Positions 25,378-63,644 of a stretch of DNA of 64,000 bases are shown piece by piece (the stretch's first letter is position 1; each line of letters opens with the position of its first letter). This DNA comes from a virus. The notes under the pieces were generated by a model. The model was given only the letters and a program-made list of their open reading frames with translations. It was not told where the DNA came from and did not search any database. Location: the IMG/VR virus record IMGVR_UViG_3300001533_002564, positions 40,189-104,188 of that record. One strand, 5' to 3'. The translations under genes were made by a program, and so were the position numbers.

Positions 25378-25941
25378 ATGAAAAAGAAAAAACAGTTCAA
25401 AAATATTGAAGATGAAAGAATGGGGTTATTTATGAATAATAATTCTTTTGATTTGGATATTATGTATGGTAGAAATTTTTTACAAACAGATAATGCACAA
25501 ACAGTTATTATTCATAAAATAAATCTTATTGAAACTAAATCACATGCTTTATATGGTCAATCAAAAACTAAAGATAAAAAATTTATGACACCAGTAACTA
25601 TAAATGTTATGGTTAATATTGAAGATAGTAAACAAGAATATTATGGTAATAGTCAGGGTGGAATATCACGTGATGATAGTGGAAGTATTAGTTTTGGTGT
25701 TTATCTCGAAGAATTAAAAGAAAAACAGATTGAAATTGATAGAGGTGATATTATTGAATACAATATGAGTGGTGAAAAAAATAGATATTACGAAGTTGAA
25801 AATGCAAATAATGTTACTGATGAAACAAAAAAAACAATTGGAGGATTCAAAAGTTACTGGAAAAAAGTTACTGGAGTTCCCGTAAAATCCGATTCAGTCC
25901 CATTTTATGATAATGAAGAAACTGGTGAATCAATGGTCTAA
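25378..25941 (+). CDS. Head-closure protein (gp14-like) with HEN-supplied C-terminus
   Basis: HALYGQS, I.RGDII..YYEV motifs; follows gp13-like gene. Confidence 0.6.
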   Translation: MKKKKQFKNIEDERMGLFMNNNSFDLDIMYGRNFLQTDNAQTVIIHKINLIETKSHALYGQSKTKDKKFMTPVTINVMVNIEDSKQEYYGNSQGGISRDDSGSISFGVYLEELKEKQIEIDRGDIIEYNMSGEKNRYYEVENANNVTDETKKTIGGFKSYWKKVTGVPVKSDSVPFYDNEETGESMV

Positions 25942-26970
25942 ATATATGTAATTAGTGAAATTATTACTTCTTAATCTATCCCAAATTAATTGTTGTTTCA
26001 ATTTAAGTTTATTTGATGCATCAGTTAATGAATGATATTTAACATCATCAATTTTAAACGGTTTATTATTTAATGCGTAATTATTACCCTTATTTTTTTT
26101 TGATATTTTTTTATTTATTTCTTCAATTGTTATTAATTCATTAATATTTTTTGGTTTGTTTTTATAAAAATAATTCATAAATGTTATAGTATTACTATTA
26201 ATACGATAAATTAGTGTTGCGTATTTAATTTTCAATTTTTGTGATGCTATTTTAGGGTTAATATATTCAACATCATTAATGACAACAGGATTGTTTTTAT
26301 ATGTTTGTTTCTGATTTTTTTTACGACAATCTTTATGATATTTAGCATATTTACTAATTTCTTTTCCGCATCCGCATATACAATAATATTTTTTCTTAAT
26401 AAATGGTTTATAAAAATATATTTTATGTTTTATAGAATCATATTCACCTATTTTTGGATTGTTTTCGTAATACCAGTTTTTATTTTTCCAATTTTTAAGT
26501 TTACTTGAAATTGATTTAATATCAACACATAATTCATTAGCAGCATCTTGTAATTTATCATATCTAATATTATTAATATAAAATGGTTTAGTGTGTTTAC
26601 CTAAATTACCAACACTCATTTTAAGACGAATTTCTTTTTGATTTGGATGTATTGATAAATCATAATTATTTCCTGAAGCAATTCGTGAAATATTATATAC
26701 GTTTTTCCAATTACTTATATTATTTAAATAATTTTGTTCTATCAATAAAACATCACTTTTTTTACACTTTTCTAATAATTCAACAATAAAAACATTTTTA
26801 CCATATTTATTATATGCATTTTGTAAATGTATACTATGATGACAATTTCTTTTTAATAATTCAAAATGTTTACGTATTCTTATTTTTATGTTATATGATG
26901 AACCAACATAATATTTATTATTGATAACATTAGTTATTTTATAAATTCCAGACACATTTAAATCTTTCAT
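25930..26970 (-). CDS. Free-standing GIY-YIG homing endonuclease
   Basis: SGIYKITN..NNKYYVGSS, HLQNAYNKYG, EQ.YL, YN; three repeated IND..Y.S...AS..L DNA-binding modules; late motif at 26985-26992. Confidence 0.88.
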   Translation of the reverse strand: MKDLNVSGIYKITNVINNKYYVGSSYNIKIRIRKHFELLKRNCHHSIHLQNAYNKYGKNVFIVELLEKCKKSDVLLIEQNYLNNISNWKNVYNISRIASGNNYDLSIHPNQKEIRLKMSVGNLGKHTKPFYINNIRYDKLQDAANELCVDIKSISSKLKNWKNKNWYYENNPKIGEYDSIKHKIYFYKPFIKKKYYCICGCGKEISKYAKYHKDCRKKNQKQTYKNNPVVINDVEYINPKIASQKLKIKYATLIYRINSNTITFMNYFYKNKPKNINELITIEEINKKISKKNKGNNYALNNKPFKIDDVKYHSLTDASNKLKLKQQLIWDRLRSNNFTNYIYLDH

Positions 26971-26999
26971 ATCACTAATTTAATATAAATACTTAGAAA

Positions 27000-27071
27000 T
27001 GGAAAAGAATTGTTGAAGTTCCTATTAAGGAAGATGTTGTTCCATTTTTAAGTGAAACAAAAGGGAGTTAA
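27000..27071 (+). pseudogene. Relic original 3' end of the gp14-like gene (WKRIVEVPIKEDVVPFLSETKGS*)
   Basis: 9/16 identical to WKKVTGVPVKSDSVPF at 25858; its stop abuts the convergent gene. Confidence 0.75.
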
Positions 27072-27082
27072 TTAACTCCCTT
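27061..27082. terminator. Perfect 22 bp palindrome spanning two convergent stop codons
   Basis: aagggagttaa-ttaactccctt. Confidence 0.6.
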
Positions 27083-27320
27083 CATTTTTTAAGTGTTTTT
27101 TCTTAATCTTTTCTAATTCTTCAACAAGTTTTTTATGTTGGTCTTTAGATTGGATTCCTAAGTCATCACCATATTCTTTAAAAATATCTATAACAAAAAT
27201 AATAAATTCTTTTTCTTTTTTAGATAAATATATTGATTTTTTAGCAAATAAATATAATGCCATTGCAAGCAATAGTATAACTACTACTAATAGTAAAATA
27301 ACTATATACGACATCGGCAT
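27072..27320 (-). CDS. Small membrane protein
   Basis: N-terminal hydrophobic helix. Confidence 0.7.
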   Translation of the reverse strand: MPMSYIVILLLVVVILLLAMALYLFAKKSIYLSKKEKEFIIFVIDIFKEYGDDLGIQSKDQHKKLVEELEKIKKKHLKNEGS

Positions 27321-27325
27321 TCAAT

Positions 27326-27598
27326 TTATTTAAGTATTTTTTCTCTAACTAATGCGATATGTGCTTCACCCATTATTTTACTCCAAGGAATTGGAACACC
27401 ATTTTCAACAAAATCATTATAATAATCTTGCATTTTTAAAAACCAACGTGTTTCTTGATTCATACCATTATAAACTAAACCACGTTCTTTCCAAGTATCA
27501 CCCCAACGCTTTTCATCATCTGATAATTGGTCTTCTACATCGCAAAATGTTTGACCTAATTCATTAATTAAATCAATATCCTTTAATCTTTCGTCCAT
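27326..27598 (-). CDS. Hypothetical protein
   Basis: 90 aa ORF in the thyX operon. Confidence 0.7.
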   Translation of the reverse strand: MDERLKDIDLINELGQTFCDVEDQLSDDEKRWGDTWKERGLVYNGMNQETRWFLKMQDYYNDFVENGVPIPWSKIMGEAHIALVREKILK

Positions 27599-27601
27599 AA
27601 T

Positions 27602-28243
27602 TTAATATTTTATATCATCAAAAATTATTGGTAATAAATCTTTGATTTCTTCAAGTAATGGTATTGCCAATTCTCTCATTTGTGGGTGTGCTGCCTTTGA
27701 ACATCTTAATTTTAAAAAATGTCTCCATTCCCTTAAATTCATTTTTACATTTATTTCTGTTTTTAATCCATTTGGTAATATATATCTTGCTTCTTGTGGT
27801 GATGCACCTAAATCGATTAATTTATTATATGCTTTTTCAATATCAATTAAAACTTGTTTTAAAATTGCATATTTTTCACAATCATCATCAGATTCAGGAC
27901 AATTTGACCAAAAATTGGGTTGAATGTAAGTAATTTGATTTCCAAACTTATCTTTTGAATAATTACAATATCTTGTACTTTCTTCTGCATAACTTGCTAA
28001 TCTATGTCTAACAATTTCATGTGAAACACCTCTATCACATATGAATTTAACTGTAATATCAAAAAATTCAATCATTGCTTCATGACCACTATTAATTAAT
28101 CGTGTAATTAATTTTTTTGATGATTCATTATCAATTTTATCTTCTGACTTATAACAAGTTCTTGCTATTTTTTCAATTGTTTTTAAAATTTCATCACCAT
28201 TAATTGTTGTTAAAATTTCATAATTTGGTTTAATAATTTTCAT
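27602..28243 (-). CDS. thyX: FAD-dependent thymidylate synthase
   Basis: RHRLASYAEESTRY signature, GHEAMIE, ARYILP, NLREWRHFLKLR..AHPQMR. Confidence 0.95.
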   Translation of the reverse strand: MKIIKPNYEILTTINGDEILKTIEKIARTCYKSEDKIDNESSKKLITRLINSGHEAMIEFFDITVKFICDRGVSHEIVRHRLASYAEESTRYCNYSKDKFGNQITYIQPNFWSNCPESDDDCEKYAILKQVLIDIEKAYNKLIDLGASPQEARYILPNGLKTEINVKMNLREWRHFLKLRCSKAAHPQMRELAIPLLEEIKDLLPIIFDDIKY

Positions 28244-28254
28244 AATTTTTAATT

Positions 28255-28941
28255 TTATTGTTTATATTTCCATTTATATCCAAATGCTGTTTTATTTCGT
28301 TTTCTTAAACATTGCATTATACCACTACGACCATAATTAAGAATTCTTGATGCTTCACTAATTGATTCAAATTTATTAATTATATTCTCATTTAAATCTA
28401 ATTGTAATATTGGTTTTTTATTAACCACATTACGTTTCATATTTAAATAATCAATTTTTCTATTTTTTATTGATTTCTTCCATGAAACCCAATCAGTATT
28501 TTCTTTAATTTTTCTTAATCTTTCTGGATTATTATAATCAATTTTTAATGTTCTATTTTTTATAAATAACTTCTTTTCCTCTTCAGATGAAAAATTATTT
28601 AAATGTTTACTTCTTTCAAAAGTATGAAATATTTGTTTATTATAATCAATATATTTTGAAGTGTCACCACCATCACCATTTTCAATTCGTAAATTTGCCC
28701 AAACTTTAGATTCTACCACATTATATTTTAAACTAAATTCAATTCCTTTTTCTATTAATGTTTTTTCATTATCAGTTTCTAATATAATTTCTGTTTGAAT
28801 GTCGATAGATTTTAAATTATGTTTTTTTAAATGTCTTTTCCATAATTCACCACTACCATTATATTTAAACGGATTTTTTGTTGTTTTACCTAAATATTTT
28901 AATCCTAACGGACTTGTTTTAACATACAAATAGTATTTCAT
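28255..28941 (-). CDS. Free-standing GIY-YIG (Seg-like) homing endonuclease with NUMOD1
   Basis: YLYVK...LKYLGKT, Y.GSG..W..HLKKH; C-terminal FESISEASR...GYKWKY; late motif at 28956-28963. Confidence 0.82.
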   Translation of the reverse strand: MKYYLYVKTSPLGLKYLGKTTKNPFKYNGSGELWKRHLKKHNLKSIDIQTEIILETDNEKTLIEKGIEFSLKYNVVESKVWANLRIENGDGGDTSKYIDYNKQIFHTFERSKHLNNFSSEEEKKLFIKNRTLKIDYNNPERLRKIKENTDWVSWKKSIKNRKIDYLNMKRNVVNKKPILQLDLNENIINKFESISEASRILNYGRSGIMQCLRKRNKTAFGYKWKYKQ

Positions 28942-28991
28942 AACTTAATTTTATTATAAATACTATGGTGATGGATATTGGTGTTACTTTT

Positions 28992-29177
28992 TTATACTCT
29001 TTTATTTAAAACTTCAATTTGATTATTAATGCGTTTTTTATCTCCATCGGTTAATGGAATTTTTTTGGTTGTTGTTTTACCATCATTTTTTTCAGGTTTT
29101 AAACCTGTTTTAAGTTGTGCTTCTAATTGTTCTAAAGCACTATTTCTTCTTAATCTATGTCCTGATTTACCTTTCAT
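28992..29177 (-). CDS. Small basic hypothetical protein
   Basis: 61 aa ORF. Confidence 0.65.
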   Translation of the reverse strand: MKGKSGHRLRRNSALEQLEAQLKTGLKPEKNDGKTTTKKIPLTDGDKKRINNQIEVLNKRV

Positions 29178-29574
29178 AATTATTTAATTTAGAATTTAAT
29201 TATTTTTATTTTAATTCCTTCTATCCAATATTGATTCATATAATTTCATTTTCTGATTATATATATTAACATTTTTATTTTCATATGATAATATTATGAT
29301 TTTTATTATTTCATTAAATATATTAATATTTTTATTATAATCATTCACATCTATTAACGAATTCATTAATATCATTTTTGCTAGTTCTTCATATGAACTA
29401 GGGTTTATATATTCTACAATATCGATAACTTCAGACATCTTTATTTTAGGTTTAACTAAATTTAAACAATCGAAAACCCATAAATCAAAATCATAATAAT
29501 TTAAATATTTTATTTTTTTCATATGGATTTATTTTCCTAATTTACCTTTCATAATTATTTAATTTAGAATTTAA
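29160..29574. repeat. 40 bp direct repeat (29160-29199 and 29535-29574, one mismatch) flanking a 103 aa ORF
   Basis: tcct(g/a)atttacctttcataattatttaatttagaatttaa; includes the leader and MKGK start of the 61 aa gene. Confidence 0.9.
29211..29522 (-). CDS. Hypothetical protein inserted between direct repeats
   Basis: 103 aa ORF. Confidence 0.6.
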   Translation of the reverse strand: MKKIKYLNYYDFDLWVFDCLNLVKPKIKMSEVIDIVEYINPSSYEELAKMILMNSLIDVNDYNKNINIFNEIIKIIILSYENKNVNIYNQKMKLYESILDRRN

Positions 29575-29582
29575 GTATATAT

Positions 29583-30056
29583 TTATTTTCCTGAACTACC
29601 AAAACCACCTCTATTTTTAAATTTTAAACTATTAGTTTCAATAAATTTAATTTTATTATCAATTAACCATTTTAATTTAATATACCAAGGTGCTTTCATT
29701 ATTAATCTAATTTCAAATTGACAAATTCTATCGCCAGTATTGACTTCAGTATTTTTTAAAGCAATTGCATTAAACATCCAAATATCATTATTGCCCGAAT
29801 ATCCATCAGAAACATTGTCAGGTCCATCCACAACACCATAATGATTTGCCTGAATTAACGAATATTTTTTATATGTTCCACTTCTGGGTACTATATTTGC
29901 TTGATAATATTTAGGTAAGCGTATTGAAACACCTAACGGAATTAATTTATTTTCAAATTTTTTAAATTGAATATTTTCTGATGATTTTAAATCAATCCAA
30001 TTACCGTGTTGTTCTAAATAACAATTTTTATTATGATATTTAACTAATATATTCAT
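29583..30056 (-). CDS. dut: Trimeric dUTPase
   Basis: WIDL, VPRSGT, GVVD..Y.G, GDRICQF, RGGFGSSG motifs. Confidence 0.92.
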   Translation of the reverse strand: MNILVKYHNKNCYLEQHGNWIDLKSSENIQFKKFENKLIPLGVSIRLPKYYQANIVPRSGTYKKYSLIQANHYGVVDGPDNVSDGYSGNNDIWMFNAIALKNTEVNTGDRICQFEIRLIMKAPWYIKLKWLIDNKIKFIETNSLKFKNRGGFGSSGK

Positions 30057-30668
30057 TAATATTTTCTTTTTGTTTAATAATATTTAATGGTAATAATTTT
30101 TTTGCTTTTTCAGGATTTTTACACCAAGAACATAATTCTTCTAAAGATACTTTATTATGACAATATGCCCATAATGTTGCATTTCCAAAATTTTTATGTA
30201 ACCATCTATGATTACTCCAAGTAATTAGTAATAAATTTTCTTCCGAATTATTAGTAATTTCACAATCCCTATGATGAACACAATAATTTTCAGGTAATTT
30301 ATTAATATCTAAATATTCAAATACTACTTTATGATGTAATTTTATTCTACCAAATCTAGGTAAATTACTCAATAAATATTCATTATCATGTGTTGTGTTT
30401 CTAAAATTAGGATTTTTATCACCAAAATATGCTTTTTTTCTAAAATTAGCAACACATTTGGTTGAACAAAAATAGCCATGAGTTCTTTTGTATCTTTTTT
30501 GGAAGATTCTTTTAAATGAAATAATTCACCACATTCAGTACAAACAGTATTTAATTCACCTTTTAATTTTTCGTTTGCACAAACTTTAGAACAATATTTA
30601 GCACTATCTTCTCTACTATTAATAACTTCGAATCTATTACCACAATTTAAACATTTTTTCTCAACCAT
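30040..30668 (-). pseudogene. HNH homing endonuclease with N-terminal zinc fingers, split by a 1-nt frameshift in an A6 run near 30495-30500
   Basis: MVEKKCLNCG..YCSKVC..CTECG, then other frame GYFCSTKC...YCVHHRD...NNSEENL..H..LH; late motif at 30684-30691. Confidence 0.8.
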
Positions 30669-30735
30669 AATATTTACATTAGAATAAATACTCGGTGTTA
30701 TTGAAAATAACAATAAACACAAGATTATTTTATAT

Positions 30736-31050
30736 TTAATCTGTATCATTAATTTCTTTAATTTTATTAATTATATTTATAATATTTTCAGGAGTTTCTT
30801 CTTTTTCTACATTGTTAATAATTTCATCATAATCAGACTCAATTTTTTTATTAATCTTATCTAATTCATTAATAGTTTTTAATACAAATCTTGCTTGATG
30901 ACCATTATCTATTGCAACTGGAGCATCTCTATTTTTATAAAACAAATAATTTTCTTCATTAGCATAAAATAATAATGCTTGTTTTAATAATTCAATAGTA
31001 TTTAAATAATTTTCTTCATTAATCATCTTCTTCAGATTTATTTTCAACAA
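30736..31050 (-). CDS. Hypothetical protein
   Basis: ~100 aa ORF overlapping its neighbours. Confidence 0.65.
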   Translation of the reverse strand: MLKINLKKMINEENYLNTIELLKQALLFYANEENYLFYKNRDAPVAIDNGHQARFVLKTINELDKINKKIESDYDEIINNVEKEETPENIINIINKIKEINDTD

Positions 31051-31351
31051 TATTTTTTAATTCATTTATTTCATTAGGATAAAGTGTAAATTCTTTACGA
31101 TAAGGATATTCGTCTTTCTTATTTATATTTTTATAAAAAAATTTACCATGTGATTCAGCATCTTCAAATTCTTCATAAAATTCAGGTGTAATATTTTCAT
31201 AAGAATATGTATGACCACGACTAAATGCAATATATAATCGCTGCATTTTTGGGAAATATGTTGTTTTTAATATATTATCTGATTTAAAAACAGATTCAAT
31301 ATATCCTATTGACTTGTCTTCATTTAATATTTCTTTTCTTTCTACTATCAT
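31019..31351 (-). CDS. KTSC-domain protein
   Basis: S.NI...Y..L.I.F..G.TYSYENI....YEEF..AES.GKFF..NI pattern. Confidence 0.8.
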   Translation of the reverse strand: MIVERKEILNEDKSIGYIESVFKSDNILKTTYFPKMQRLYIAFSRGHTYSYENITPEFYEEFEDAESHGKFFYKNINKKDEYPYRKEFTLYPNEINELKNIVENKSEEDD

Positions 31352-31358
31352 AATTGAG

Positions 31359-31389
31359 CAAATATAATTAATTAATAATTAAAATCAAA
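31359..31389 (-). promoter_or_regulatory. Bacteroidota promoter TTTG-N19-TATATTTG
   Basis: Full consensus match; back to back with the late motif at 31392. Confidence 0.7.
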
Positions 31390-31413
31390 GAGTATTTATA
31401 TAAAAAAGTTTAA

Positions 31414-32181
31414 ATGGCACTTCCTAAAAAGAAAAATAAATTAACATTGGATATTAATCCACCTGAAGTAGGTACTAAATACTTGAAATATGGTTTTGAC
31501 AGAATTGAAGAACTTATGGGAAAAACAGATGTCAATACTAAGTATCTACCAAGAACAATTTTATTAGAAGACCTCGACCAAGCACTTTTTAATTATATTA
31601 ATGAAGAAGGTATGGAATTAACCCTCGATGGTAAATTAGTTCCTAATTTTTATCTTGATAATGACCGTTGGGGTGAATTTAGTAAGACATGGAAGTTTAT
31701 GGATAATGATAAAAATGTACCAACACCATATATTACTGTTAGACGTATTGATAAACAAGCAGGTACAAGGCTTGGTACTAAATATAGGATACCACAACCA
31801 CGTAGTTTTAGATATATTAATGTTCCAATTATGGATGAAGGTCAATTAATTTATTTACAAATTAAAATACCTGAACCAGTAAACGTTGATATGATTTATG
31901 AAGTTGCTTTATTTACAAAATATCGTGTTGATGTAAATCTATATGATGAACAAGTACTAAAGAATTTCGCAAGTCGTCAAGAATATGTTTGGGTTAAAGG
32001 AAATCCATTACCATTACTTTTCGAAGGATTTGCTGAGTCTAATCCAATTGAAAATATTGATGGTGATAGATTCTTTGTATCAAAATATGCGTTAAAAATA
32101 TTAGGTTTTATTCAAGATGAAAAAGAATTTGAAATTGTTAAAACTATTAGAGTTCCTAGAGTTGGTTATAATGTTTCATAA
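31414..32181 (+). CDS. Tail terminator/sheath stabiliser (gp15-like)
   Basis: PYITVRR and PEPVNVDMIYEV motifs; late motif at 31392. Confidence 0.6.
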   Translation: MALPKKKNKLTLDINPPEVGTKYLKYGFDRIEELMGKTDVNTKYLPRTILLEDLDQALFNYINEEGMELTLDGKLVPNFYLDNDRWGEFSKTWKFMDNDKNVPTPYITVRRIDKQAGTRLGTKYRIPQPRSFRYINVPIMDEGQLIYLQIKIPEPVNVDMIYEVALFTKYRVDVNLYDEQVLKNFASRQEYVWVKGNPLPLLFEGFAESNPIENIDGDRFFVSKYALKILGFIQDEKEFEIVKTIRVPRVGYNVS

Positions 32182-32996
32182 TCACCATTTTCAGGATTAA
32201 ATATATTACCATCTGGATATTCTTGTTGTTTATTATCAAATTTCTCAACACTATCATTAATTTTATTTGAATATAAATTATTTAATGGAATTTGATATGC
32301 TTTTTGAAATGAACCTTCATCAAAATACCATGTCATGTTTAATAAATCTAATTTTACTTTAAAATATAATTTTTCGGCAGTACTAAGACTTTCATTATAT
32401 TTATTATAAAATAATGAAATCTGACCTGTTTTAGCATTATAAAAACTGAATTTAATATAACCTTCTGCAATTATATTTCCAGATAATAAATTATTGTCAA
32501 TAAATCTTTTAGGTACATACCAATAATTAAATTGATTTATTTTATTATCAGATAACCTATATTTTGGTATTGGAATGTAATTACTTACTTCACTATTTAA
32601 TATTTGTGTGTTGTAAATGGTAAAGAACTTATTTTGGTCATAATAATTGAAATTATCATAAAAATCCATAATAAAGAAACTTTTTCTTAAATTAATACTT
32701 TTATCAGAAATTTCTTTTGATGTAAAATTAGCTGCACCTGAAAGAAAAGAATTATCATATGAATTACCATTAGTAATGAAGTAAAAAATGATATTACTTG
32801 TGAAAATTGTAGATGTTTTATATTTAAATCTTCTAACTTCATTATCAATAATTGGATTAGTTAAATCTACTTTAACTTGTTCAGTTAATTTGTCAATTTC
32901 TTGTTGATAACCAATATGATTAGTATTTCTATCTAAAGTAATTTTTAGATTAATATCTTGATTAGTTGATTTTATTCTTTCTTTAATTATTGACAT
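32166..32996 (-). CDS. Putative virion structural protein
   Basis: 276 aa; co-oriented with a late operon. Confidence 0.55.
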   Translation of the reverse strand: MSIIKERIKSTNQDINLKITLDRNTNHIGYQQEIDKLTEQVKVDLTNPIIDNEVRRFKYKTSTIFTSNIIFYFITNGNSYDNSFLSGAANFTSKEISDKSINLRKSFFIMDFYDNFNYYDQNKFFTIYNTQILNSEVSNYIPIPKYRLSDNKINQFNYWYVPKRFIDNNLLSGNIIAEGYIKFSFYNAKTGQISLFYNKYNESLSTAEKLYFKVKLDLLNMTWYFDEGSFQKAYQIPLNNLYSNKINDSVEKFDNKQQEYPDGNIFNPENGDYETL

Positions 32997-34597
32997 GGTT
33001 TTCCTATATTATCTAACTCAGTTATTGGTGTTTTATCGATAATTGTTGCATCATCACTAAATGATATTTCATTAAATACATTAATGGTATTTGTATGTTT
33101 TTCAAAACTTTCATTACTTAAATTCGGAACAACACTAAATGTTATTGGTGAAAATAAATATCTTTTTCCATTAAAAAATGGATAGTCAACACCTAAATTA
33201 GAAATTGGTTCGGTATATCCTTGTTGAACAATATCACGCCAAACATATTTACCATCATTTTCAATAATCGTTGCAAAATCAGGTATTATTTCTAATTTTC
33301 TTTCATTTGGATTTGGAATAAGACCAACTCTTATTCTTATGTAATCACCAGAATTATAATATTTTTCAATTATAACTCCTTCAGTTGAATTTGTTTCAAG
33401 ATATTTTCTAGTTGTATTTGGTATTTTAACCCAACTAGTTCCATTAGTTGATTTTTCTAAATATGTTTCTGCTAAATATTTGTCAGTACCATCAGATAAA
33501 TATATTTGTGTTTTAAAATTAATTTTATATGTTCTAGAATTTAAAAATTTAAGTGTACCTGTATTGGCATTAAAATTAAAATATGTATTTGTTTGAGTGT
33601 CCCAATTAGTAATTGTTCTTGTTATTGTATTAAGATTTTGTTTTAAACTTTTAGTTGCGTTAATCTTATTTTTTGAACTATCATCTATTTTATATACATC
33701 AAGAGTTGTTGTGTTTTCGACAATTTTACTTAATTTAGCTGTACTAAGTACGCCATCAAAATATCTTAATTTAAACGGAATTAATGGATTATAACTCCAT
33801 TCAAGATATTTCGTTGTACTACCTACTTTATATGGTGTTCTTATATAATATTTTTGATTTTCAATTTGGTTTTGTGAATATTCACTATCATTATATTCTA
33901 TAAAATCATTAATTAATCCACCGTTTACTTGAGCAAGATTATCACCAATATTTATATGTGCTGATGGTCTTCCAACATAACTACTTTTAAAATGATTACC
34001 TCTTGATGACCACTTAATATATGACATTGATTCGGAAGTAATTTTCTTATATTGAGCATATAAAAATAATTCAGTTATTGGAAATCCAAAGGCATCATAT
34101 AAATTATTAACATCAAAATCTAAATTAAAACTAAATGCGTAACTTTGTTCACCAAATACATTATTACTAAATCCTGCATTATATATTTCAAAATTATTTG
34201 GTTTTGCCAGTACTTTAAAACTTCTTTTATATTTATTAGTATTTCTTCCTATCTTAATATAACCAGTATCTGATGGTGCTACTAAATAAAAATCAAATGA
34301 ATTAAATATATCTTTAAAACTTCCAGTCTTTTTAGGGTTAAAAAAATCTTCTAATTTATCATAACCTGATTTTAATCCATTTAATAATGATAAATATTCA
34401 ATTCTACCATATATTCTATATATAGCATTAGCTTCTCTTTCATTATCAAATTGTTCTGTAGCATTTACAACATCATTAACAGTAAACTCAGTTATTCTAC
34501 TTTCTTTTTTTGTTAATTCAATTTTATTGTAGTTGTCAACATTAACACTATTAATATTTTTCTCACTACCAAGTAATATTTTTAATTTATTATCCAT
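32987..34597 (-). CDS. Putative virion structural protein
   Basis: 536 aa; late motif at 34603-34610. Confidence 0.55.
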   Translation of the reverse strand: MDNKLKILLGSEKNINSVNVDNYNKIELTKKESRITEFTVNDVVNATEQFDNEREANAIYRIYGRIEYLSLLNGLKSGYDKLEDFFNPKKTGSFKDIFNSFDFYLVAPSDTGYIKIGRNTNKYKRSFKVLAKPNNFEIYNAGFSNNVFGEQSYAFSFNLDFDVNNLYDAFGFPITELFLYAQYKKITSESMSYIKWSSRGNHFKSSYVGRPSAHINIGDNLAQVNGGLINDFIEYNDSEYSQNQIENQKYYIRTPYKVGSTTKYLEWSYNPLIPFKLRYFDGVLSTAKLSKIVENTTTLDVYKIDDSSKNKINATKSLKQNLNTITRTITNWDTQTNTYFNFNANTGTLKFLNSRTYKINFKTQIYLSDGTDKYLAETYLEKSTNGTSWVKIPNTTRKYLETNSTEGVIIEKYYNSGDYIRIRVGLIPNPNERKLEIIPDFATIIENDGKYVWRDIVQQGYTEPISNLGVDYPFFNGKRYLFSPITFSVVPNLSNESFEKHTNTINVFNEISFSDDATIIDKTPITELDNIGKPCQ

Positions 34598-34630
34598 TTA
34601 ACATAAATACATTTATTTTTTTTTCTGATT

Positions 34631-34662
34631 TTTGTAACATATTAATTTTTATACCGTATAAT
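34631..34662 (+). promoter_or_regulatory. ECF-sigma-like promoter (second copy)
   Basis: TTTGTAACATAT...CGTATAAT, same spacing as 88-119. Confidence 0.55.
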
Positions 34663-34690
34663 GAGTATGTTTAACTAAAAACTTATAAAA

Positions 34691-35182
34691 ATAAAAAAAT
34701 TAACTTATTTATTATTAGCAATGTTCGCAGTTGTACTTATGAGTACAAGTTGTGAAGAAGAAAATGTTACTCCTGATGAACTTACTGAAACACCAAAAAT
34801 TACATTAGAAGAATTCGAAGATTTATGGAATTTTGTTCAAGCCGAATATGATGATAAAACTTATTATAGTTGTGCTGATGTTGAAGATGACCCTGATGCC
34901 GATTCAAGATTACGACTTGTTGAGATTAGAATTGAATTGATTCCATCTAATTATATTGTTGAAGAATATAATTGTAAAATATATTATAACCCTATTTGTC
35001 AAGATGGAAATGTTTGGGGTATTTATTGTAACTTAGATGAAACACAAAATACTTTTAAATTAGAAGGTGGGATGGTATTTAAAATATTAGAATATAATAA
35101 ATCAACAGAAGAATTAAAAGGAGAATTAATTGAAGGTTCGGGATATAATCTAGTTGGAGTAAAATATGTTTGGCAAAAATAA
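34691..35182 (+). CDS. Bacteroidota-type lipoprotein (lipocalin-like); signal peptide begins at an ATA codon
   Basis: (I/M)KKLTYLLLAMFAVVLMSTS-CEEE lipobox followed by acidic residues; in-frame stop at 34676 excludes an upstream ATG. Confidence 0.7.
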   Translation: MKKLTYLLLAMFAVVLMSTSCEEENVTPDELTETPKITLEEFEDLWNFVQAEYDDKTYYSCADVEDDPDADSRLRLVEIRIELIPSNYIVEEYNCKIYYNPICQDGNVWGIYCNLDETQNTFKLEGGMVFKILEYNKSTEELKGELIEGSGYNLVGVKYVWQK

Positions 35183-35202
35183 TTTATTAAATTATAAATT
35201 TT

Positions 35203-35228
35203 AAACCCACCTAATTGGTGGGTTTTTT
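35203..35228. terminator. Terminator between convergent genes
   Basis: aaacccacc-taatt-ggtgggtttttt. Confidence 0.85.
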
Positions 35229-35229
35229 A

Positions 35230-37320
35230 TTAAATATTTAATATTGATGCAACAAATTTAATTGAATCTGCTGAGTCAAATCCTTTGTAAAAATAAAATT
35301 TATCATCTTTAGAATTAGTATTACTCACAGGATTGCCATTATTACCACCCCCTTTTATTGGGCATGGGTCTCCACCCCAAGAAGGTGGTGTTTTACCATT
35401 TCGATAATCACCTTTTAAGTTATTATCTGCTAAATAATTATCTGTTGTATTATCAAATCCTTTTTTATTAAAATTATTTAATATTTTTATGTCGGTTTTA
35501 GGTACTTTAATAAAATCAGTCCAATGTAAATCAGAACGTAAATACCATTTATTATTAACAATTCCATCAGCAATTAATCTTTCATTATTATTAGTAAAAA
35601 AATCATTATAACTACCATTATATCTTTGAAAATATGAATTAGTTTTCATATTACCAAAATCACTCGTGACAACATAACCGATGTTAGGTAAATAAATTGA
35701 AAAATTTAACCAATTTGAACCAAAAGCCTTCGTAGTTGAAACATTAGTAGTACCATTACTTGGAAATTCATTATCATCATCAATTACTACAACACCAACA
35801 TTCCAATTTGGGTCAAATTGTAATTTATTTATAGTATCACTGTTTTCAAAACCATTATCTGGTGTTCCTGTTTCAGACCCACTAGTATTTGCTACAAGAC
35901 CGTTAAATTTTGCAACACTATATACTTCATTTGCTTTAAATGTATAATGTTGATTATTCCATTTAAATGCATGTGGATAATACGAAAAATCCTTATTTCT
36001 TGGTGCGTGTTGAGGAATTTTTATTCTTGTTCTAAAAACAGTAACTGAATTATTATTACTGCCAATAGCATTATCATATTTTTTATTTGGGGTTGATAAA
36101 TCTTCTTCGGTTATTTCTAAGGTTATGAATCCTTTAAACTCAGTATATACACCACCATCATATGAATCATCAACTTCTATTGGGTCGCCTACTTCATTCT
36201 CAATTATTTTTTTCCGATTACAATTGATAATAAAAACAAATTCACCATCATTTTTATGAATAGTATATTGGCTTTTATCTAAAACTAACATTTTTTTTGC
36301 TAGTTCTTCAGTATAATAATTTTCATTTATTTCAGTATCACTAATATTGTTTGGATAATAATATATTTTTTCAGTAATATTACCAATTCGCTTACTACTA
36401 ATTTTATAATTATCACCTTTATTAATTCTATATAATTGTTCAACAGCATGAACTTCATTATCACTTTCCCAATTAGCCGCCCATCTTGATTCATATGCAT
36501 CAGTAAATATACTTCCAAAAATAGTAAATGTATTGTTTAGTTCAGCACGAATTCTAAAATCTTGTCTTGTAATACCTATTTCAAAATTTTCAACATCACC
36601 CCAAAACGGAATAATATCAACACTAATTTCTTGTGTTTCAATATGTGGTAAATCAACTAAATCTTTACTTGGTTTTATTCTAGTATTATTGTTTGTAAAT
36701 AAATTAGGTGAATAACCTAGATTAATAACCATTGCAGCAGGTGTCATACTATATTCTCCAATATCTGTAATATCAACACTCAAATGAACAGTTTGTGTAC
36801 CAACAGGTACTCCAAAAATCATATAATCACCATTACTATTGGTTAATGCAGTATATTTATAATATTTTTTATATATATCAAGATATTGTTTATTAGCTAA
36901 TATTTCTTCTTTAGTTGGAAAACTCCCAAATGATTGTTGTGGTGTTATAAGTTCAGTATTGGGGTCTTTAGTTGAGACTCTCGGTAATAAATTATATTTT
37001 TTACCTTCATTATTTTTTATTCTCGGAGTACTATATGGATATATACTATATATATCTGAATTTAATGCATCTTCTTCTGTTAGTGGTATAAATATACTGA
37101 TTTTAGCATTAGGAATTCCAATCCCTTTATTTGCAATCACTCTACCAACTAAAACACCATAATCTGAATTAAAATTTTGATATATATCAGCAGTTCCTAT
37201 TTTTAAAGACATGAACTCAAGTGTTTCAACATCTTGGTCAAGCTTGACTTTAATATATTTATCTTGATTTCGGTTACCAGTATCACCTGTACTCAAATAA
37301 ATTCGTTGTGATTTGTTCAT
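35230..37320 (-). CDS. Putative virion structural protein with carboxypeptidase-regulatory-like beta-sandwich N-terminus
   Basis: GVLVGRV...GIPNAKISIF and TNSNGDYMIFGVPVG motifs; late motif at 37336-37343. Confidence 0.55.
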   Translation of the reverse strand: MNKSQRIYLSTGDTGNRNQDKYIKVKLDQDVETLEFMSLKIGTADIYQNFNSDYGVLVGRVIANKGIGIPNAKISIFIPLTEEDALNSDIYSIYPYSTPRIKNNEGKKYNLLPRVSTKDPNTELITPQQSFGSFPTKEEILANKQYLDIYKKYYKYTALTNSNGDYMIFGVPVGTQTVHLSVDITDIGEYSMTPAAMVINLGYSPNLFTNNNTRIKPSKDLVDLPHIETQEISVDIIPFWGDVENFEIGITRQDFRIRAELNNTFTIFGSIFTDAYESRWAANWESDNEVHAVEQLYRINKGDNYKISSKRIGNITEKIYYYPNNISDTEINENYYTEELAKKMLVLDKSQYTIHKNDGEFVFIINCNRKKIIENEVGDPIEVDDSYDGGVYTEFKGFITLEITEEDLSTPNKKYDNAIGSNNNSVTVFRTRIKIPQHAPRNKDFSYYPHAFKWNNQHYTFKANEVYSVAKFNGLVANTSGSETGTPDNGFENSDTINKLQFDPNWNVGVVVIDDDNEFPSNGTTNVSTTKAFGSNWLNFSIYLPNIGYVVTSDFGNMKTNSYFQRYNGSYNDFFTNNNERLIADGIVNNKWYLRSDLHWTDFIKVPKTDIKILNNFNKKGFDNTTDNYLADNNLKGDYRNGKTPPSWGGDPCPIKGGGNNGNPVSNTNSKDDKFYFYKGFDSADSIKFVASILNI

Positions 37321-37601
37321 TTTAAAATGTTTACTATAAATACTAATACGAAAAAAACTAAAAAATATTGATTTTTTTTATTTTAAAATTTAAAGAAATT
37401 GAAACAAATTTAAACTAAAAAATCTCATTTTTTTTAAAATTAACACATAAAAATTAAAAAAACAATAAAATCAGGTCTTATTGATAAGAATAGCAATATT
37501 ATAATAATTAAATCAAAACTTCTTTTCGATATTTTTTAAGTATTTATTGAAAAGAACGAGCATAATAAAATAAAAATAATAAAATTTAAAATAAAAATAA
37601 T

Positions 37602-40358: not shown

Positions 40359-40382
40359 CAATAATGATAACAAATAAATATA

Positions 40383-40410
40383 AAAAAACCTGCAAATTTG
40401 CAGGTTTTTT
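40383..40410 (+). terminator. Terminator after sheath gene
   Basis: aaaaaacctgca-aatt-tgcaggtttttt. Confidence 0.85.
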
Positions 40411-40460
40411 ATTTTACAAGTATTTAGATATAAATTATAGTAATTAAAATTTAAATAATT

Positions 40461-40922
40461 ATGATTAGAAAAAAGAAAAATGTTCTTAATCAAAATATAA
40501 AAAAGGAACCAATAATCGAAAAAGAGAATATTGAAGAAGAAGAATTAAAATATAATGAAGATTATGTTGAAAATACTGAATCAAATAAAAATAGATGAGA
40601 AAATTCACCTTATTTACTGGGTTTAAATGGTAATACTGATGAATCAAAAACAAAATTATTTGAAGCAACTCCAAAACAACGAGTACCTGAAAATAATGAA
40701 TTAAATAATCAAGATTCATTAACTGGTTTAAAAAATGATGAACAACCACAATATCCATTACAAGATGAAAATATTGAAGAAGCTCCTGAAGAAATTGTTC
40801 AACAAATATTAGAATATTATCCAAAAAAAGATAAAGTGGAAGAAAAACCATAAAGAACATTAAAGAGTCTTAGTAAATCAGAACTTAGATTTTATCAAAG
40901 AACAGGTATTATGCCTAAATAA
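40461..40922 (+). pseudogene. Acidic low-complexity ORF (153 codons) interrupted by two in-frame stops (TGA 40596, TAA 40851)
   Basis: One frame with phage-like codon usage from MIRKKK to ...SELRFYQRTGIMPK*; missed by the ORF track. Confidence 0.65.
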
Positions 40923-41511: not shown

Positions 41512-41530
41512 TAATCAAATATTTAAAATT

Positions 41531-41598: not shown

Positions 41599-42261
41599 AT
41601 GAAAAATCAAAAAGTAAATGCAATTGATTTTAAAGAAATTAAAACATTAGCACATGCATATATCCTTGGGTTGTTATGGGCAGATGGAACAGTAATTTTT
41701 GCAAATAATAATGCTAAAACACCACAAATAAAACACTCTGCAAAAAAAGATGACAATATATCATTTAGAAAAATTTTTTAAATGACTGGTGATTGGGGTT
41801 TATATAAAACAAGAAATCAGGGGTCATTTACTAAAAAAAATAATATTCTTGAAGTAAATTGGACATCTAATAGAGAATTAGGTGAATTTTTAATTCAAAA
41901 TGATTATAGAAATAAAATAAAATCACCAAATAAAATATTAAATAAGTTAGGTGTATTAGAAAAACAATTATGGTTTAGAGGTTTTTTTGATGGTGATGGT
42001 TCAATTACTATTATACCTAATGGACATCATTCAATAGCATTTACTGGTTCAAAATTTCAAAATTGGGAGTTTATTAAAAATTTATTTAATGAAATTGGAA
42101 TTGAGCGATATAAGGAAAGAATTATTAAAAGTAGAAATGCGTTTTCTTCACAGATAAGAATAACTAATAAAAAAGATATTAATATATTCTATAATTATCT
42201 ATATCAAAATTCGTTAAATATTGGATTAATGAGAAAACAAGAAAAATTTATATTACTTTAA
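41599..42261 (+). pseudogene. Two-motif LAGLIDADG homing endonuclease broken by in-frame TAA at 41779
   Basis: AYILGLLWADG in the first ORF, WFRGFFDGDG in the second, same frame. Confidence 0.82.
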
Positions 42262-46053: not shown

Positions 46054-46436
46054 TATTTTTTACCTTTTTTTTCAAGTTCTTCATGAACAAAACTTAATAA
46101 CTCATTTCTTCTGTCAGTACCAACTTCACCAGTTTCATCATCACCACCTGATACATTTTTTATTGTACCTTCACCTTTTTTATCAAAAACAACTTCTTTT
46201 AAATAACGTAATAACATAATTTTTTGGTCTTGATTTTTTGCTTCTGCTGATATAAGTTTAACTATTTGATCGCCAATTGCAGCAACTTCACCAGTTTCTT
46301 TTATTTTAGTTTCCCATTTAGTAAATAATCTAGTGATTTTTGCTTTCTGATTATGACTCTCATCATAGATTTCTTGAAGAAGTTTATTAACACTTTCTTC
46401 ATCAAATTTTAATTTTTTTCTTTTTGGTCTACTCAT
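46053..46436 (-). CDS. Hypothetical coiled-coil protein
   Basis: 127 aa; start overlaps the HEN stop. Confidence 0.7.
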   Translation of the reverse strand: MSRPKRKKLKFDEESVNKLLQEIYDESHNQKAKITRLFTKWETKIKETGEVAAIGDQIVKLISAEAKNQDQKIMLLRYLKEVVFDKKGEGTIKNVSGGDDETGEVGTDRRNELLSFVHEELEKKGKK

Positions 46437-47046
46437 TGTCGTATAATATTAGTCTTTTTTTATAATTTATGATATCACTAATATGTGATGGGTCAACATT
46501 ATACATATTAGCTAATATACATTGTTTTATATTATCATTTTCATATAATAATCTAATCTTCTTCACATCATTATTTAACAATTTTCTTTTATAATTATGT
46601 AAACCAATTAATCTTTTTGCTTCAGAACTATGTTTTTTATTATAAAAATTATTTCCTTTACCACTCATTCTTCTTTTTTTATCTTCAATACCCCTTTGAT
46701 GTTTAGAACCTAAGTTATTTTTTGCTAAAGGGCAGATATTATAACCATATTTATTATTAAATGATTTATATTTATTAATATAGTTTTGTTCAATTAATAC
46801 TAAATTATCAATATTGTTTATTATTTCAATAACACCAAATATAAACATATTTTCGCCATATTTATTCCATGCATTTTATAAATGCCTAGAATGATATTTA
46901 TTATTATTTAATAAAAATCGATGACTTGATAATCTACTAATTAAACATTTAGCACTTCCAATATAGACTTTACCATTATATAAATTTTTTATTAAGTAAA
47001 CACCCGAATCTTTTATATTTATTCCATATTTACTTGATCGTGCCAT
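46429..47046 (-). pseudogene. GIY-YIG homing endonuclease with premature TAA (46878-46880)
   Basis: MARSS...SGVYLIKN..NGKVYIGSA...HSRHL*NAWNKYG (paralog at 25930 has HLQNAYNKYG), then GYN, NUMOD3, HTH; late motif at 47061-47068. Confidence 0.82.
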
Positions 47047-60061: not shown

Positions 60062-60859
60062 ATGAAATTTAATGAAATTGTACATCAATTCCAACACAAT
60101 GTTTTTGGAAATCTTACAACAATAAGGAGTTTTAAAGATAAAAATAAAATTTGGTTTCTTGGTGCAGAAGTTCAAAAGTTTATTGGTCACAGTAATTTAA
60201 CACAAGCAATTAAAGATGCAAATTTAAATTTTGATGAATTTTTTAAATTTAAAAAACTATCTAATCCTCAGTTCTTTACAGAGGTGACTAAGCAGTCCTT
60301 AGTCGGCTATGGAAAGTATTCATCATCAATTACTTTCATTTCAGAGAGTGGACTTTATAAACTAATCCTTCGTTCAAATAAACCTGAAGCACAAAAATTC
60401 GCAGATTGGATAACTAGAGAAATTCTCCCTAAATTAAGACAAGCAGTTGAAGAAGATTTAGTATTTAAAAATACTTCTGTTGAAATTAGCAGACATCTTG
60501 ATATCTTACATCAAAAGCAAGAATCAAAAAATATTAATGGGTTTAATTTTCGAACTGGCGGTGTAAATAAAGCAGTAAAATATAATCGAAATAGTTGTTT
60601 AGACCATTCAGGACAAACACCTAGTGAATAAAAAAAATGGGCAGAAGAAAATGGTATACCTTCATCAAAAAGAACGTCAGGTAAAAAAGTTTTAAGATTA
60701 GTGAATATGCCTGTAGCAGCATCAATGTCATTAACTGATAGTTTGGTTTCAAATGGTATTTCATATGAAAAAGCATTACCAATAAGTAAATGTGCTGGAA
60801 AAGAATTATTTAAACAATTAATTGAAATAGGTGTAAAATCTAAAGAATTAGAATTATGA
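60062..60859 (+). pseudogene. Bro-N (antirepressor-like) DNA-binding protein with in-frame TAA at 60629
   Basis: FISESGLYKLILRSNKPEAQKFADWITREILP; frame continues 75 codons past the TAA to a TGA overlapping the next ATG. Confidence 0.75.
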
Positions 60860-60987
60860 AAAATAACATCGTAGTAATATTTTCTTCACATCTGAGCGAA
60901 GAAGAAAACCAAAAATTCATAAAACATATTGATAATACAATTGGTGTTAAACATAAAGTAGTTTGTTATCCTAATTTTAATAATTAA
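60856..60987 (+). pseudogene. Relic original 5' end (43 aa) of the downstream glycosyltransferase
   Basis: MKNNIVVIFSSHLSEEENQKFIKHIDNTIGVKHKVVCYPNFNN*; 30/42 identical to the N-terminus of 62016..63644. Confidence 0.9.
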
Positions 60988-61012
60988 GTATTTATATAAA
61001 AAATACTATAAA

Positions 61013-62035
61013 ATGAAAATATGGACGAATGAAGAAAAAGAATTTTTAACCAATTATTTTTCAATAAGTGGAACTAATTTTTGTATAAATGAACTAAATA
61101 GGAGTTGGTCATCGGTTATTGGAATGGCTACTAAATTAGGATTAAAAGCAAAAAAATCTAATTCATATACTAATAATGAATTAGATTTTTTAATAAGAAA
61201 TTATTCATCTCATGGTGTTGAATATTGTATGAATTATTTAGGAAGAACAAAACAAGGAATATGTGCGAAAGCACATAAATTAAATTTATATGTTGATGAT
61301 AATACTAAATCACAAAATATTAGTGAGAAAAGGAAAATTAATAACTATAAAAAATATGATGTTAATAATATAATTAATATTAATGATAAATATGTTATTT
61401 ATTTTTTAGGTTATTTGTGGGCAGATGGTAATTTAAATAAAACAAATTCATATTTAACATCAATTAATTTAATTAAAGATGATGCTGAGTTTTTGTATGA
61501 AATAATTAATTTATTTAGTTCTGGGTGGACAATTGGTGGTGAAATAAAAAAATATTGGAAAAACGATAAAGGTAAAATCAAACAAGCAAAAAATCAAAGA
61601 ACAATACGATGTTATTCACAAGAATTATATAAATTTTTATCCGAAAATGATTATAAAAATAAATCTGATGTTAATTTTTATAAAATTTGGAATAAATTTC
61701 CAAATAAATTTAAGTCATATTTTTTGTTAGGCTTATTTGATGGTGATGGTCATTTTAATTATCAATTTAGAAAAAACAAATATCATTCTGGAGAATTTGT
61801 AGTTAGTGGTTTATATAATTATGATTGGAGTATTTTAGAAAATTATTTTAATAATAATAATATTAAATATTCAATATATAGACTTAATGTTAAATTAGGT
61901 CAAGTATCAAGAATTATAGTAAGAAAGAAAGAATCATTAATTATATTATTTGATTTACTTTATCCTAATGAATTTCATGGTTTAGAAAGAAAATATTTAA
62001 AATTTTTAAAATATTATGAAAAAACGAAAAAATAA
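61013..62035 (+). CDS. Free-standing LAGLIDADG homing endonuclease with N-terminal Myb-like repeats
   Basis: WTNEEKEFL / YTNNELDFL repeats; YFLGYLWADG and FLLGLFDGDG; late motif at 60988. Confidence 0.87.
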   Translation: MKIWTNEEKEFLTNYFSISGTNFCINELNRSWSSVIGMATKLGLKAKKSNSYTNNELDFLIRNYSSHGVEYCMNYLGRTKQGICAKAHKLNLYVDDNTKSQNISEKRKINNYKKYDVNNIININDKYVIYFLGYLWADGNLNKTNSYLTSINLIKDDAEFLYEIINLFSSGWTIGGEIKKYWKNDKGKIKQAKNQRTIRCYSQELYKFLSENDYKNKSDVNFYKIWNKFPNKFKSYFLLGLFDGDGHFNYQFRKNKYHSGEFVVSGLYNYDWSILENYFNNNNIKYSIYRLNVKLGQVSRIIVRKKESLIILFDLLYPNEFHGLERKYLKFLKYYEKTKK

Positions 62036-63644
62036 AATTGTTGTAATATTTTCATCACATTTAGGTGATGAGAAAAATAATAAATTTATTAATCATATAC
62101 ATGAGACAATTGGGGTAAAACATGATGTTGTTTGTTACACGAATTATAATCAATATAGTCTTACTGAAATATATAATGATGCAATTGATAAATATAATAA
62201 TGAAAATGTAATTATGGTATTTTGTCATCCAGATATAATAATAAAAACAAAAAATTGGGGTAAGATTTTATTAATAAAATTTAATAGTACTTATTTAGAT
62301 ATAATTGGTGTTGCTGGAAGCACGTTTCTACCTGAATCAGGTACGTGGTGGGAAGACCGAAGTAAAATGTGTGGTATTGTTGAACATACAAATGAAATAA
62401 ATACTTGGGTTAATGAATATAGTCCAGAAATTCGTGGAATTAAGGAAGTAGTTATAATTGACGGATTATTTATGGCAGTTGATTGTAATAAGATTGTTCA
62501 TAAATTTGATATAAATTATAAGGGATTTCATTTTTATGAGATTTCAATGGTAGTTCCTAATTATCTGGATGGTTGTAATATAGGAGTAAGTACTTCAATA
62601 AGAATTTTACATAAGTCCGTTGGTCAAACTAATCAAGAATGGGAAAATAATAGACAGCAATTTGCAAAACAATATGCTGATGAACTTCCAATAAAACATG
62701 TTAGTGAAGATAAATTAAAGGTGTTAATCTGTTGTCAATTCTTTAAAAATTATACTGGTTCTGAAGTCAGTAATTATGAATTATCAAAGGAATTAGTTAA
62801 ATTAGGTTGTGATGTTACAATTATTTCATCAATGATAGGTGAACCATTATTAAGTAAAGCACAAAAAAATGGTGTTAAAGTTTATGGATTTAATAATTTA
62901 CCTAATCATAAATTAGTTGATGGAAAATTTAATTTTTATCAAAATGAAGTTGATTTTGATATTATTCATATTAATCATAAACCAATTGGTGAAATAATAT
63001 TACAACTTTATCCAAATACACCTGCTGTAATGCATGTTAGAAGTGAAGTAATACCAAGATTTGAAGAACCAATTATTAATCCAGTAATTAAACGTTATAT
63101 TAGTATTAGAGAAAGTATTACCGAATATATTAAGACATTTGGAATTGCTGATAATAAAATTATTGAAATTGACAATCCTTTTGACTCAACACGTTTTAAT
63201 ACTGATTATAAACCAGTAAAAAATAAAAAAGAAATTATATTATTTATTGGAACATTGGATTATTTACGGGAAATGATTTTACATGATTTAGCCAAAATGG
63301 TTAGAGAAAATAATCAAGAACTCTGGATTATCGGTGCTGATAATGGTGGGTATTCTGGTGAATTTACAAATCAGGAAAATATAAAATATCTTGGTGTTAA
63401 ATCAAATGTTGAAGATTATATTAAAAAATGTGATTATACTGCTGGTATTTTTAAAGGTAGAACAACAATTGAAGGATTTCTATGTGGAAAAAAAGGTTGG
63501 ATATATTATGTTGATAAAGACGGTAAGATTTTAGATAAAAAATTAACAGATGTTCCAGAAGATATTGAAAAATATAAATCGGAGTTTTCAGCAAACCAAG
63601 TATTTAAATTATATAATGATGTACTTGACGAAACTTGGTTATGA
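62016..63644 (+). CDS. Two-domain glycosyltransferase (GT-A + GT-B)
   Basis: YN.AI...VFCHPDI, IIGVAG, DGLFMA, GFHFY; then YTGSE...ELSKEL...G.DV, FIG, GRTTIEG. Confidence 0.82.
   Translation: MKKRKNKIVVIFSSHLGDEKNNKFINHIHETIGVKHDVVCYTNYNQYSLTEIYNDAIDKYNNENVIMVFCHPDIIIKTKNWGKILLIKFNSTYLDIIGVAGSTFLPESGTWWEDRSKMCGIVEHTNEINTWVNEYSPEIRGIKEVVIIDGLFMAVDCNKIVHKFDINYKGFHFYEISMVVPNYLDGCNIGVSTSIRILHKSVGQTNQEWENNRQQFAKQYADELPIKHVSEDKLKVLICCQFFKNYTGSEVSNYELSKELVKLGCDVTIISSMIGEPLLSKAQKNGVKVYGFNNLPNHKLVDGKFNFYQNEVDFDIIHINHKPIGEIILQLYPNTPAVMHVRSEVIPRFEEPIINPVIKRYISIRESITEYIKTFGIADNKIIEIDNPFDSTRFNTDYKPVKNKKEIILFIGTLDYLREMILHDLAKMVRENNQELWIIGADNGGYSGEFTNQENIKYLGVKSNVEDYIKKCDYTAGIFKGRTTIEGFLCGKKGWIYYVDKDGKILDKKLTDVPEDIEKYKSEFSANQVFKLYNDVLDETWL

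Follow-up and report, generated by a model that had tools for sequence, protein, structure and literature searches.

Two genes in a 64,000-nucleotide (nt) stretch of viral DNA, a glycosyltransferase gene (locus A) and a structural gene whose product is weakly neck-like (locus B), were found to be invaded by free-standing homing endonuclease genes of the LAGLIDADG and GIY-YIG families, respectively, with an intact copy of the gene end on one side of the nuclease and a stranded fragment of the resident end, here called the relic, on the other. The stretch, referred to as the window, is part of the 104,188-base virus record IMGVR_UViG_3300001533_002564, and the material comes from aquatic and freshwater-sediment metagenomes. 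Each nuclease gene lies against one end of a conserved gene, with a slight overlap, and that end is a diverged allele, which may resist cleavage. The most probable explanation, which we would put at roughly 70%, is that the nuclease genes spread by intronless homing, the gene end beside them being co-converted, and that the relics are scars of one-sided illegitimate repair. An earlier note on this DNA had proposed that nucleases split host genes at two and possibly four loci. Loci A and B bore this out; a third case, an HNH gene at the start of the dUTPase gene, is plausible, if weak, and the fourth has no nuclease.

The record has a guanine plus cytosine content of ~25% and an estimated completeness of 32%. 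Its relatives are contigs of 300-360 kilobases (kb) with T4-like sheath, tube and baseplate genes, and the source is an uncultured freshwater jumbo phage. The related sequences compared below are designated by L numbers.

Gene ends at loci A and B and at the dUTPase start

The nuclease genes carry GIY-YIG, LAGLIDADG or HNH domains (Pfam), and each is a separate open reading frame (ORF) with its own ATG and its own upstream copy of the motif GTATTTAT. The ORFs are out of frame with their host genes, the GIY-YIG gene of locus B is antisense, and no Rfam intron family was detected anywhere in the window. An intein or group I intron carrying the nuclease was thus ruled out at the loci studied, and the earlier description of the nucleases as free-standing holds. 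The features are listed in Table 1.

At locus A, the relic aligned with residues 5-45 of the glycosyltransferase with 73% amino-acid and 76% nucleotide identity, and the alignment score was 162, compared with a shuffle maximum of 55. The backbone flanking the locus was nearest L001 on both sides; the upstream gene of 1092 amino acids (aa) was 71% identical to L001 and at most 56% identical to the others, and a 103-aa gene was 85% identical to L001. Nucleotide identity to L001 was 86.0% for the relic and 85.4% for the C-domain of the glycosyltransferase, as against 75.8% for the replacement start and 73.3% for the N-domain. A sliding identity profile placed the switch within the glycosyltransferase at about codon 200-220, and the stretch before it was nearest L189 (88%) and L039 (80-82%). 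On these comparisons, codons 1 to ~210 are best read as imported with the nuclease and the rest of the gene as resident. The imported tract begins exactly at the GTATTTAT motif of the nuclease. The left join is within codon 43 of the resident gene's sequence, where there is a short AT-rich match.

The LAGLIDADG protein has 25 homologues at 56-75% identity, with both LAGLIDADG motifs invariant in 20 of them, and is present on four contigs. Its gene overlaps the glycosyltransferase ATG (62016) by 20 nt. The metagenome contig L189 has an orthologous nuclease, 74% identical, with the same motif and the same 20-nt overlap, located in the spacer after an unrelated 227-aa gene and without a relic. 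In L113, a more distant LAGLIDADG gene occupies the same spot, likewise without a relic, and further orthologues lie directly downstream of the N-domain gene. These positions indicate that this nuclease family normally resides in the spacers flanking the N-domain gene. Since these relatives are intergenic and relic-free, the replacement end at locus A is the native neighbour of the nuclease, co-converted with it, and not the purpose-built repair module that had been envisaged. A single event would then have transferred the motif, the nuclease and ~630 nt of the gene beside it to a genome of the L001 type.

In the window and in L001-L012, the glycosyltransferase, for which no match was found in phage records, has its two domains fused in one protein. 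In L113, L114, L115, L116, L190 and L039, a gene of its own (228-231 aa) encodes the N-domain, with LAGLIDADG genes on one or both sides.

At locus B, the GIY-YIG gene runs towards the neck-like gene, with an overlap of 12 nt at the stop of the latter. Codons 161-170 of the neck-like gene are duplicated in the relic; within the window, the match between the relic and the gene's own tail was marginal (score 59, shuffle maximum 58). The identity of the relic was clear from the relatives. A tail of the type ...KEDVVPFLSETKG without a nuclease was present in 27 of 36 alleles, and the relic matches that type, with 80% nucleotide identity to the tails of L068 and L059, whereas the replacement end reaches 65-68%. 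The match is nearly letter for letter, the final ...ETKGS of the relic being found in L068 and L071 too, and in L068, which has no nuclease, an equivalent hairpin stands 3' of the intact gene. The working 'KSD' tail of the window is the minority type.

Orthologues of the GIY-YIG nuclease (59-66% identity) occupy the same site in L078, L081, L095, L108 and L112, each adjoining a KSD-type tail, so that the foreign tail is found in all six nuclease contigs, window included. The motif GTATTTAT is in the same place in L078, L081, L095 and L112. Beyond it, L081, L095 and L112 have a relic at the corresponding junction and L078 has a decayed one; the L108 contig ends before the far junction, and the relic is kept in all four of the other contigs that reach it.

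The occurrence of the cassette is sporadic, the nuclease being absent from 31 of the 36 alleles in a tree of the gene body from which the tail was excluded. Five changes are needed on this tree to account for the five rows with the nuclease, and their monophyly was rejected (difference in log likelihood 78.5; approximately unbiased (AU) test, p=0.0017). The claim that the GIY-YIG cassette is recurrent is well founded, given its presence in five other contigs and its polyphyly on the gene body. The relics also follow the local background: that of the window has the 'IV' signature also seen in L059 and L061, which are closest to it in the gene body, and that of L081 matches the tail of L089, the nearest body relative of L081. 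The composite at locus B, relic included, would since have moved among different gene backgrounds.

KSD-type tails without a nuclease also occur, cleanly in L069 and with a mini-relic of 6-7 codons right past the stop in L074, L097 and L098. These alleles could be products of nuclease loss or natural alleles of the donor type.

Taken together, the relics at both loci match the local backbone and the majority of relatives lacking the nuclease, and the intact end travels with the nuclease. The polarity given in the earlier note, an imported intact end and a resident stranded piece, is upheld. Its statement that phages exchange protein termini holds as well, the pieces exchanged between lineages being ~210 codons long in the glycosyltransferase and ~17 codons long in the tail of the neck-like protein.

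The neck-like protein itself has no Pfam or PHROG family. Its AlphaFold model was of moderate confidence (pLDDT 63.6), and the best fold matches were the T4 portal-neck gp13/gp14 complexes and other phage neck proteins (E 7e-4, TM 0.43-0.49), so the designation is a weak one that depends on a predicted structure. In the relatives (L059-L109), the spacer between this gene and a convergent 82-aa gene is an insertion hot spot that contains unrelated plus-strand ORFs of 147-362 aa. Two of these have DUF4313, several have GTATTTAT upstream, and in L074, L097 and L098 they follow the mini-relic. They were considered as nucleases and rejected, as they have no nuclease domains.

Table 1. Positions (window numbering) and strands of the features described in the text.
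Feature	Coordinates	Strand	Remarks
Locus A: stranded relic of the resident glycosyltransferase start	60856..60987	+	43 codons plus TAA; still ATGA-coupled to the upstream frame
Locus A: GTATTTAT motif	60988..60995	+	Starts one base past the relic stop; 17 nt 5' of the LAGLIDADG ATG
Locus A: free-standing two-motif LAGLIDADG homing endonuclease	61013..62035	+	340 aa, intact; Pfam LAGLIDADG_3
Locus A: two-domain glycosyltransferase	62016..63644	+	Intact, mosaic; Pfam Glyco_tranf_2_5, Glyco_transf_4
Locus B: neck-like structural gene	25378..25941	+	187 aa, intact; foreign 'KSD-type' tail = last ~17 codons, from ~25888
Locus B: free-standing GIY-YIG homing endonuclease	25930..26970	-	346 aa, I-TevI-like DNA-binding end; Pfam GIY-YIG 1.2e-7, I-TevI_DNA-bd 3.3e-5
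Locus B: GTATTTAT promoter-like motif	26985..26992	-	14 nt 5' of the GIY-YIG ATG, between it and the relic
Locus B: stranded relic of the resident 'KED-type' gene tail	26997..27071	+	24 codons plus stop
Locus B: native hairpin terminator	27061..27082	.	Now on the relic; common to the convergent downstream gene; read from sequence
dUTPase	29583..30056	-	Intact; Pfam dUTPase 5.6e-11; start overlaps the HNH 3' end by 17 nt
HNH homing endonuclease	30040..30668	-	Broken; Pfam HNH_3 and zinc ribbon; PHROG HNH endonuclease
GTATTTAT motif at the HNH gene	30684..30691	-	15 nt 5' of the internal ATG of the HNH gene
Candidate short relic of the dUTPase start	30714..30749	-	ATG-initiated, 7-12 codons; ATG overlaps the upstream stop as in HNH-less relatives
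Orphan 103-aa gene (29211-29522) flanked by direct repeat	29160..29587	-	
NUMOD1-bearing nuclease-like gene	28255..28941	-	Intergenic, between the 61-aa gene and thyX; GTATTTAT upstream; no relic
LAGLIDADG gene after the tail-tube gene	41599..42261	+	In-frame TAA 41779-41781; no relic
GIY-YIG/NUMOD3 gene	46429..47046	-	In-frame TAA 46876-46878; GTATTTAT upstream; no relic

The third site, at the start of the dUTPase gene, was found in several states among the relatives. It is empty in L213, L216, L217 and L222, where the start codon of dUTPase either overlaps the stop of an upstream gene of 84-101 aa or comes immediately after it. The window and L214 have an HNH gene with its own GTATTTAT at the site, and the HNH 3' end overlaps the new dUTPase start. 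The L214 orthologue is an intact 235-aa ORF; the gene in the window has suffered a 1-nt deletion in an A-run near 30500. In L215 (IMGVR_UViG_3300009149_000264, 2400-2550) the HNH gene has been deleted, and 21 bases identical to its 3' end remain before the dUTPase gene. The empty, occupied, broken and deleted states are together the stages expected of a homing gene. A relic of the dUTPase start is plausible at this site, although the resemblance extends over only ~7 codons, is partly constrained by the overlap and is too short for significance by score.

The fourth case is an orphan gene flanked by a direct repeat (29160-29212 and 29535-29587, 89% identical over 53 nt, of which 35 nt form an exactly matching core). 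What is repeated is the leader of a 61-aa gene (28992-29177) together with its first five codons; the insertion point is five codons into that gene, and a 7-codon micro-ORF results upstream. Neither a nuclease nor a recombinase domain is present in the insert, which belongs to no Pfam or PHROG family and has no homologue in related loci.

Proposed homing and competing explanations

Intronless homing would produce these arrangements in three steps, 1) the nuclease would cut the common allele, at a predicted site, in a co-infecting relative, 2) the break would be repaired with a copy of the nuclease gene, together with its GTATTTAT and the end of the gene next to it (co-conversion), and 3) where homology was lacking on the far side, an illegitimate join would form inside the resident gene and strand the resident end as a relic. 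Homing with one-sided repair explains the resident copy, the start of the imported tract at the motif, the relic-free orthologues and the polyphyly.

Several points weigh against this explanation. Nuclease activity and target sites are assumed, and the relic state of locus A was found in this genome only. All of the relatives have a homologous gene downstream of locus B, so an illegitimate join was not forced there, and the persistence of the relic in every carrier despite this homology is not explained by homing. The earlier note had expected relatives without the nuclease to carry the relic type of end. The majority did, but L069 at locus B and L039 at locus A carry the replacement type, and such ends are therefore natural variants that are not specific to the cassette. 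Finally, the orphan has the same start-duplication scar, which shows that the scar can arise without a nuclease that is visible today.

The unexplained persistence of the locus-B relic leaves room for a homology arm. The foreign tail, the antisense GIY-YIG gene, the start motif and the relic might together be a selected, discrete mobile unit, in which the relic would be the downstream homology arm, renewed in each recipient. We hold this only tentatively and consider it doubtful. If it were true, the unit would join introns and inteins as a third means by which a homing gene can reside inside the coding region of an essential phage gene, with the side effect that the termini of structural proteins and enzymes are shuffled between phage lineages.

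A different view is that the nucleases are passengers and that the duplications arose at insertion hot spots, where co-infecting phages that had diverged underwent ordinary illegitimate recombination with no nuclease cutting involved. The duplicated-start scar of the orphan, where there is no nuclease, is what such recombination would leave, and the spacer after the neck-like gene, with its many unrelated accessory ORFs in the relatives, is a general hot spot of the kind required. Recombination with passengers is nevertheless an unlikely account of the whole, given that a nuclease is exactly at the junction in three cases, that the GIY-YIG cassette is polyphyletic on the gene body, that the imported tract at locus A starts exactly at the nuclease motif and that the states of the HNH site fit the life cycle of a homing gene.

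The two copies of a gene end cannot be ordered from the window alone, and the polarity might have been the reverse, with the intact end resident and the short fragment brought in with the nuclease; the nuclease-less relatives with the replacement type (L039 and L069) would be in keeping with this. The match of the relics to the local backbone and to the nuclease-less majority, the match of the intact ends to nuclease-carrying lineages and the case of L189, which has the nuclease and the same gene start but no fragment, make the reverse order very improbable. Least credible of all is an assembly artefact, in which strain variants merged in a metagenome contig would have given false duplications. 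The source is a metagenome-assembled fragment that is 32% complete by estimate; however, the copies are 24-32% diverged with a full gene between them, the arrangement at locus B was found again in five contigs from other samples, and the locus-A nuclease protein is encoded on four contigs.

Comparison with known homing systems

The loci described here are probably ordinary phage homing in an unusually legible form. The free-standing T4 nucleases SegB, SegE, SegF, SegG and MobE carry out intronless homing in which flanking markers are co-converted, and many of them have late or middle promoters (PMC2988022; PMC2330249, PMC2790892). The loci of the window resemble the seg and mob genes in having GIY-YIG or HNH genes outside introns, beside conserved genes, and in the apparent co-conversion. 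They differ in that the T4 genes were described as intergenic, without a stranded duplicate gene end (PMC2988022), and in that a LAGLIDADG gene is also used here. In T4 intron homing, repair that is one-sided, with the other junction formed at microhomology, was demonstrated experimentally (PMC2988022). Such repair would give exactly the scar at locus A, where there is a short AT-rich match at the join, although the T4 experiment was done on an intron and the present case is deduced from natural genomes and free-standing genes.

In the mitochondria of the fungus Endoconidiophora resinifera, partial C-terminal duplications of atp6 and cob are found beside homing endonuclease genes (PMC6279837). 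The likeness is in the redundant end of the host gene beyond a LAGLIDADG or GIY-YIG ORF; the differences are that the present case is a phage, that the cassettes have their own promoters, that there are 5'-end as well as 3'-end versions and that the imported copy was established by comparison. Nucleases are also found within genes, as in Aeh1 nrdA-mobE and T4 gene 39/60-mobA, where the host gene is split into two working pieces (PMC2988022). As in those examples, a free-standing nuclease is inside a coding region here. Unlike genes in pieces, in which both halves are needed, the host genes here are full length and the fragment is redundant.

A survey of ICP1 and T4-like phages reported nuclease genes at the edges of mosaic tracts beside essential genes and found frameshifted nuclease genes to be common (PMC10448857). 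In the window too, nuclease genes mark mosaic edges and broken copies occur. A word search of PMC10448857 found no description of relic or replacement gene ends, and no layout of a relic plus a replacement was found in the phage literature that was searched, the coverage of which was incomplete.

The loci provide a natural sequence record of the entry of free-standing homing genes into phage coding regions without an intron or intein. The record gives the resident copy, the length of the converted tract and every stage from the empty site to the deletion footprint. Homing genes are also seen in it to exchange protein termini between lineages, here the tail of a neck-like protein and an entire glycosyltransferase domain, which is one concrete way for phage mosaicism to arise. 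When genomes are annotated, short orphan ORFs beside nuclease genes may turn out to be relics of the neighbouring gene. In addition, the loci give target-site predictions for two uncharacterised nucleases.

The GTATTTAT motif and other nuclease genes

The earlier note had taken GTATTTAT as a mark of the junctions. There are 33 copies in the window, compared with 12.2 +/- 3.7 expected, and the motif precedes many genes, so it cannot serve as such a mark. Of these copies, 19 are 0-67 nt, mostly 14-24 nt, 5' of the ATG of an ORF on the same strand, and the genes behind them include those for sheath, tube, baseplate and other large structural proteins as well as four nuclease genes. GTATTTAT is a general gene-start signal, and it is present at the junctions because each nuclease gene has its own copy. 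It is plausibly a late promoter, the late timing being suggested by the structural genes behind it. The distance from GTATTTAT to the ATG is usually only 14-17 nt with no Shine-Dalgarno sequence between them, which implies very short leaders. Examples of the sites are at 24215, 37540, 40963, 52236, 53471 and 56383. Read on the opposite strand, the extended form GTATTTAT(A) gives the T4 late promoter box TATAAATA(C); the motif nevertheless always faces a gene on the same strand.

Homing endonuclease genes are abundant in the 104-kb piece, with matches to four GIY-YIG, 4-5 LAGLIDADG and 5-6 HNH genes. Relic scans were negative for the tail-tube gene and a 261-aa gene around the LAGLIDADG gene at 41599-42261, for thyX and the 61-aa gene around the NUMOD1-bearing gene and for the 127-aa and 291-aa genes around the broken GIY-YIG gene. 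A nucleotide search of phage records with positions 25858-45000 as the query gave no match.

A single in-frame TAA occurs in the LAGLIDADG gene after the tail-tube gene, in the broken GIY-YIG gene and in a Bro-N gene (60629-60631), in each case with an open, conserved frame beyond it. At two of the three positions, the nearest homologue or paralogue has a Gln, which is what a change from CAA to TAA would produce. Stop-codon recoding was considered and dropped, as Aragorn found no suppressor tRNA in the 104-kb piece and ordinary genes are unfragmented. The stops are probably fresh nonsense mutations; read-through is possible.

Two of the 4-5 LAGLIDADG matches lie within very large ORFs of 1220 and 836 aa (C1:8883-9176 and C1:62649-62795 in the numbering of the record, the latter at 22461-22607 of the window), which suggests that they are inteins. 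In a genome-wide self-comparison for copies within 3 kb, locus A was the only strong result, together with a tandem repeat outside the window. That repeat (C1:2139-2861) is a tandemly repeated coding-like stretch with many short self-matches in several frames.

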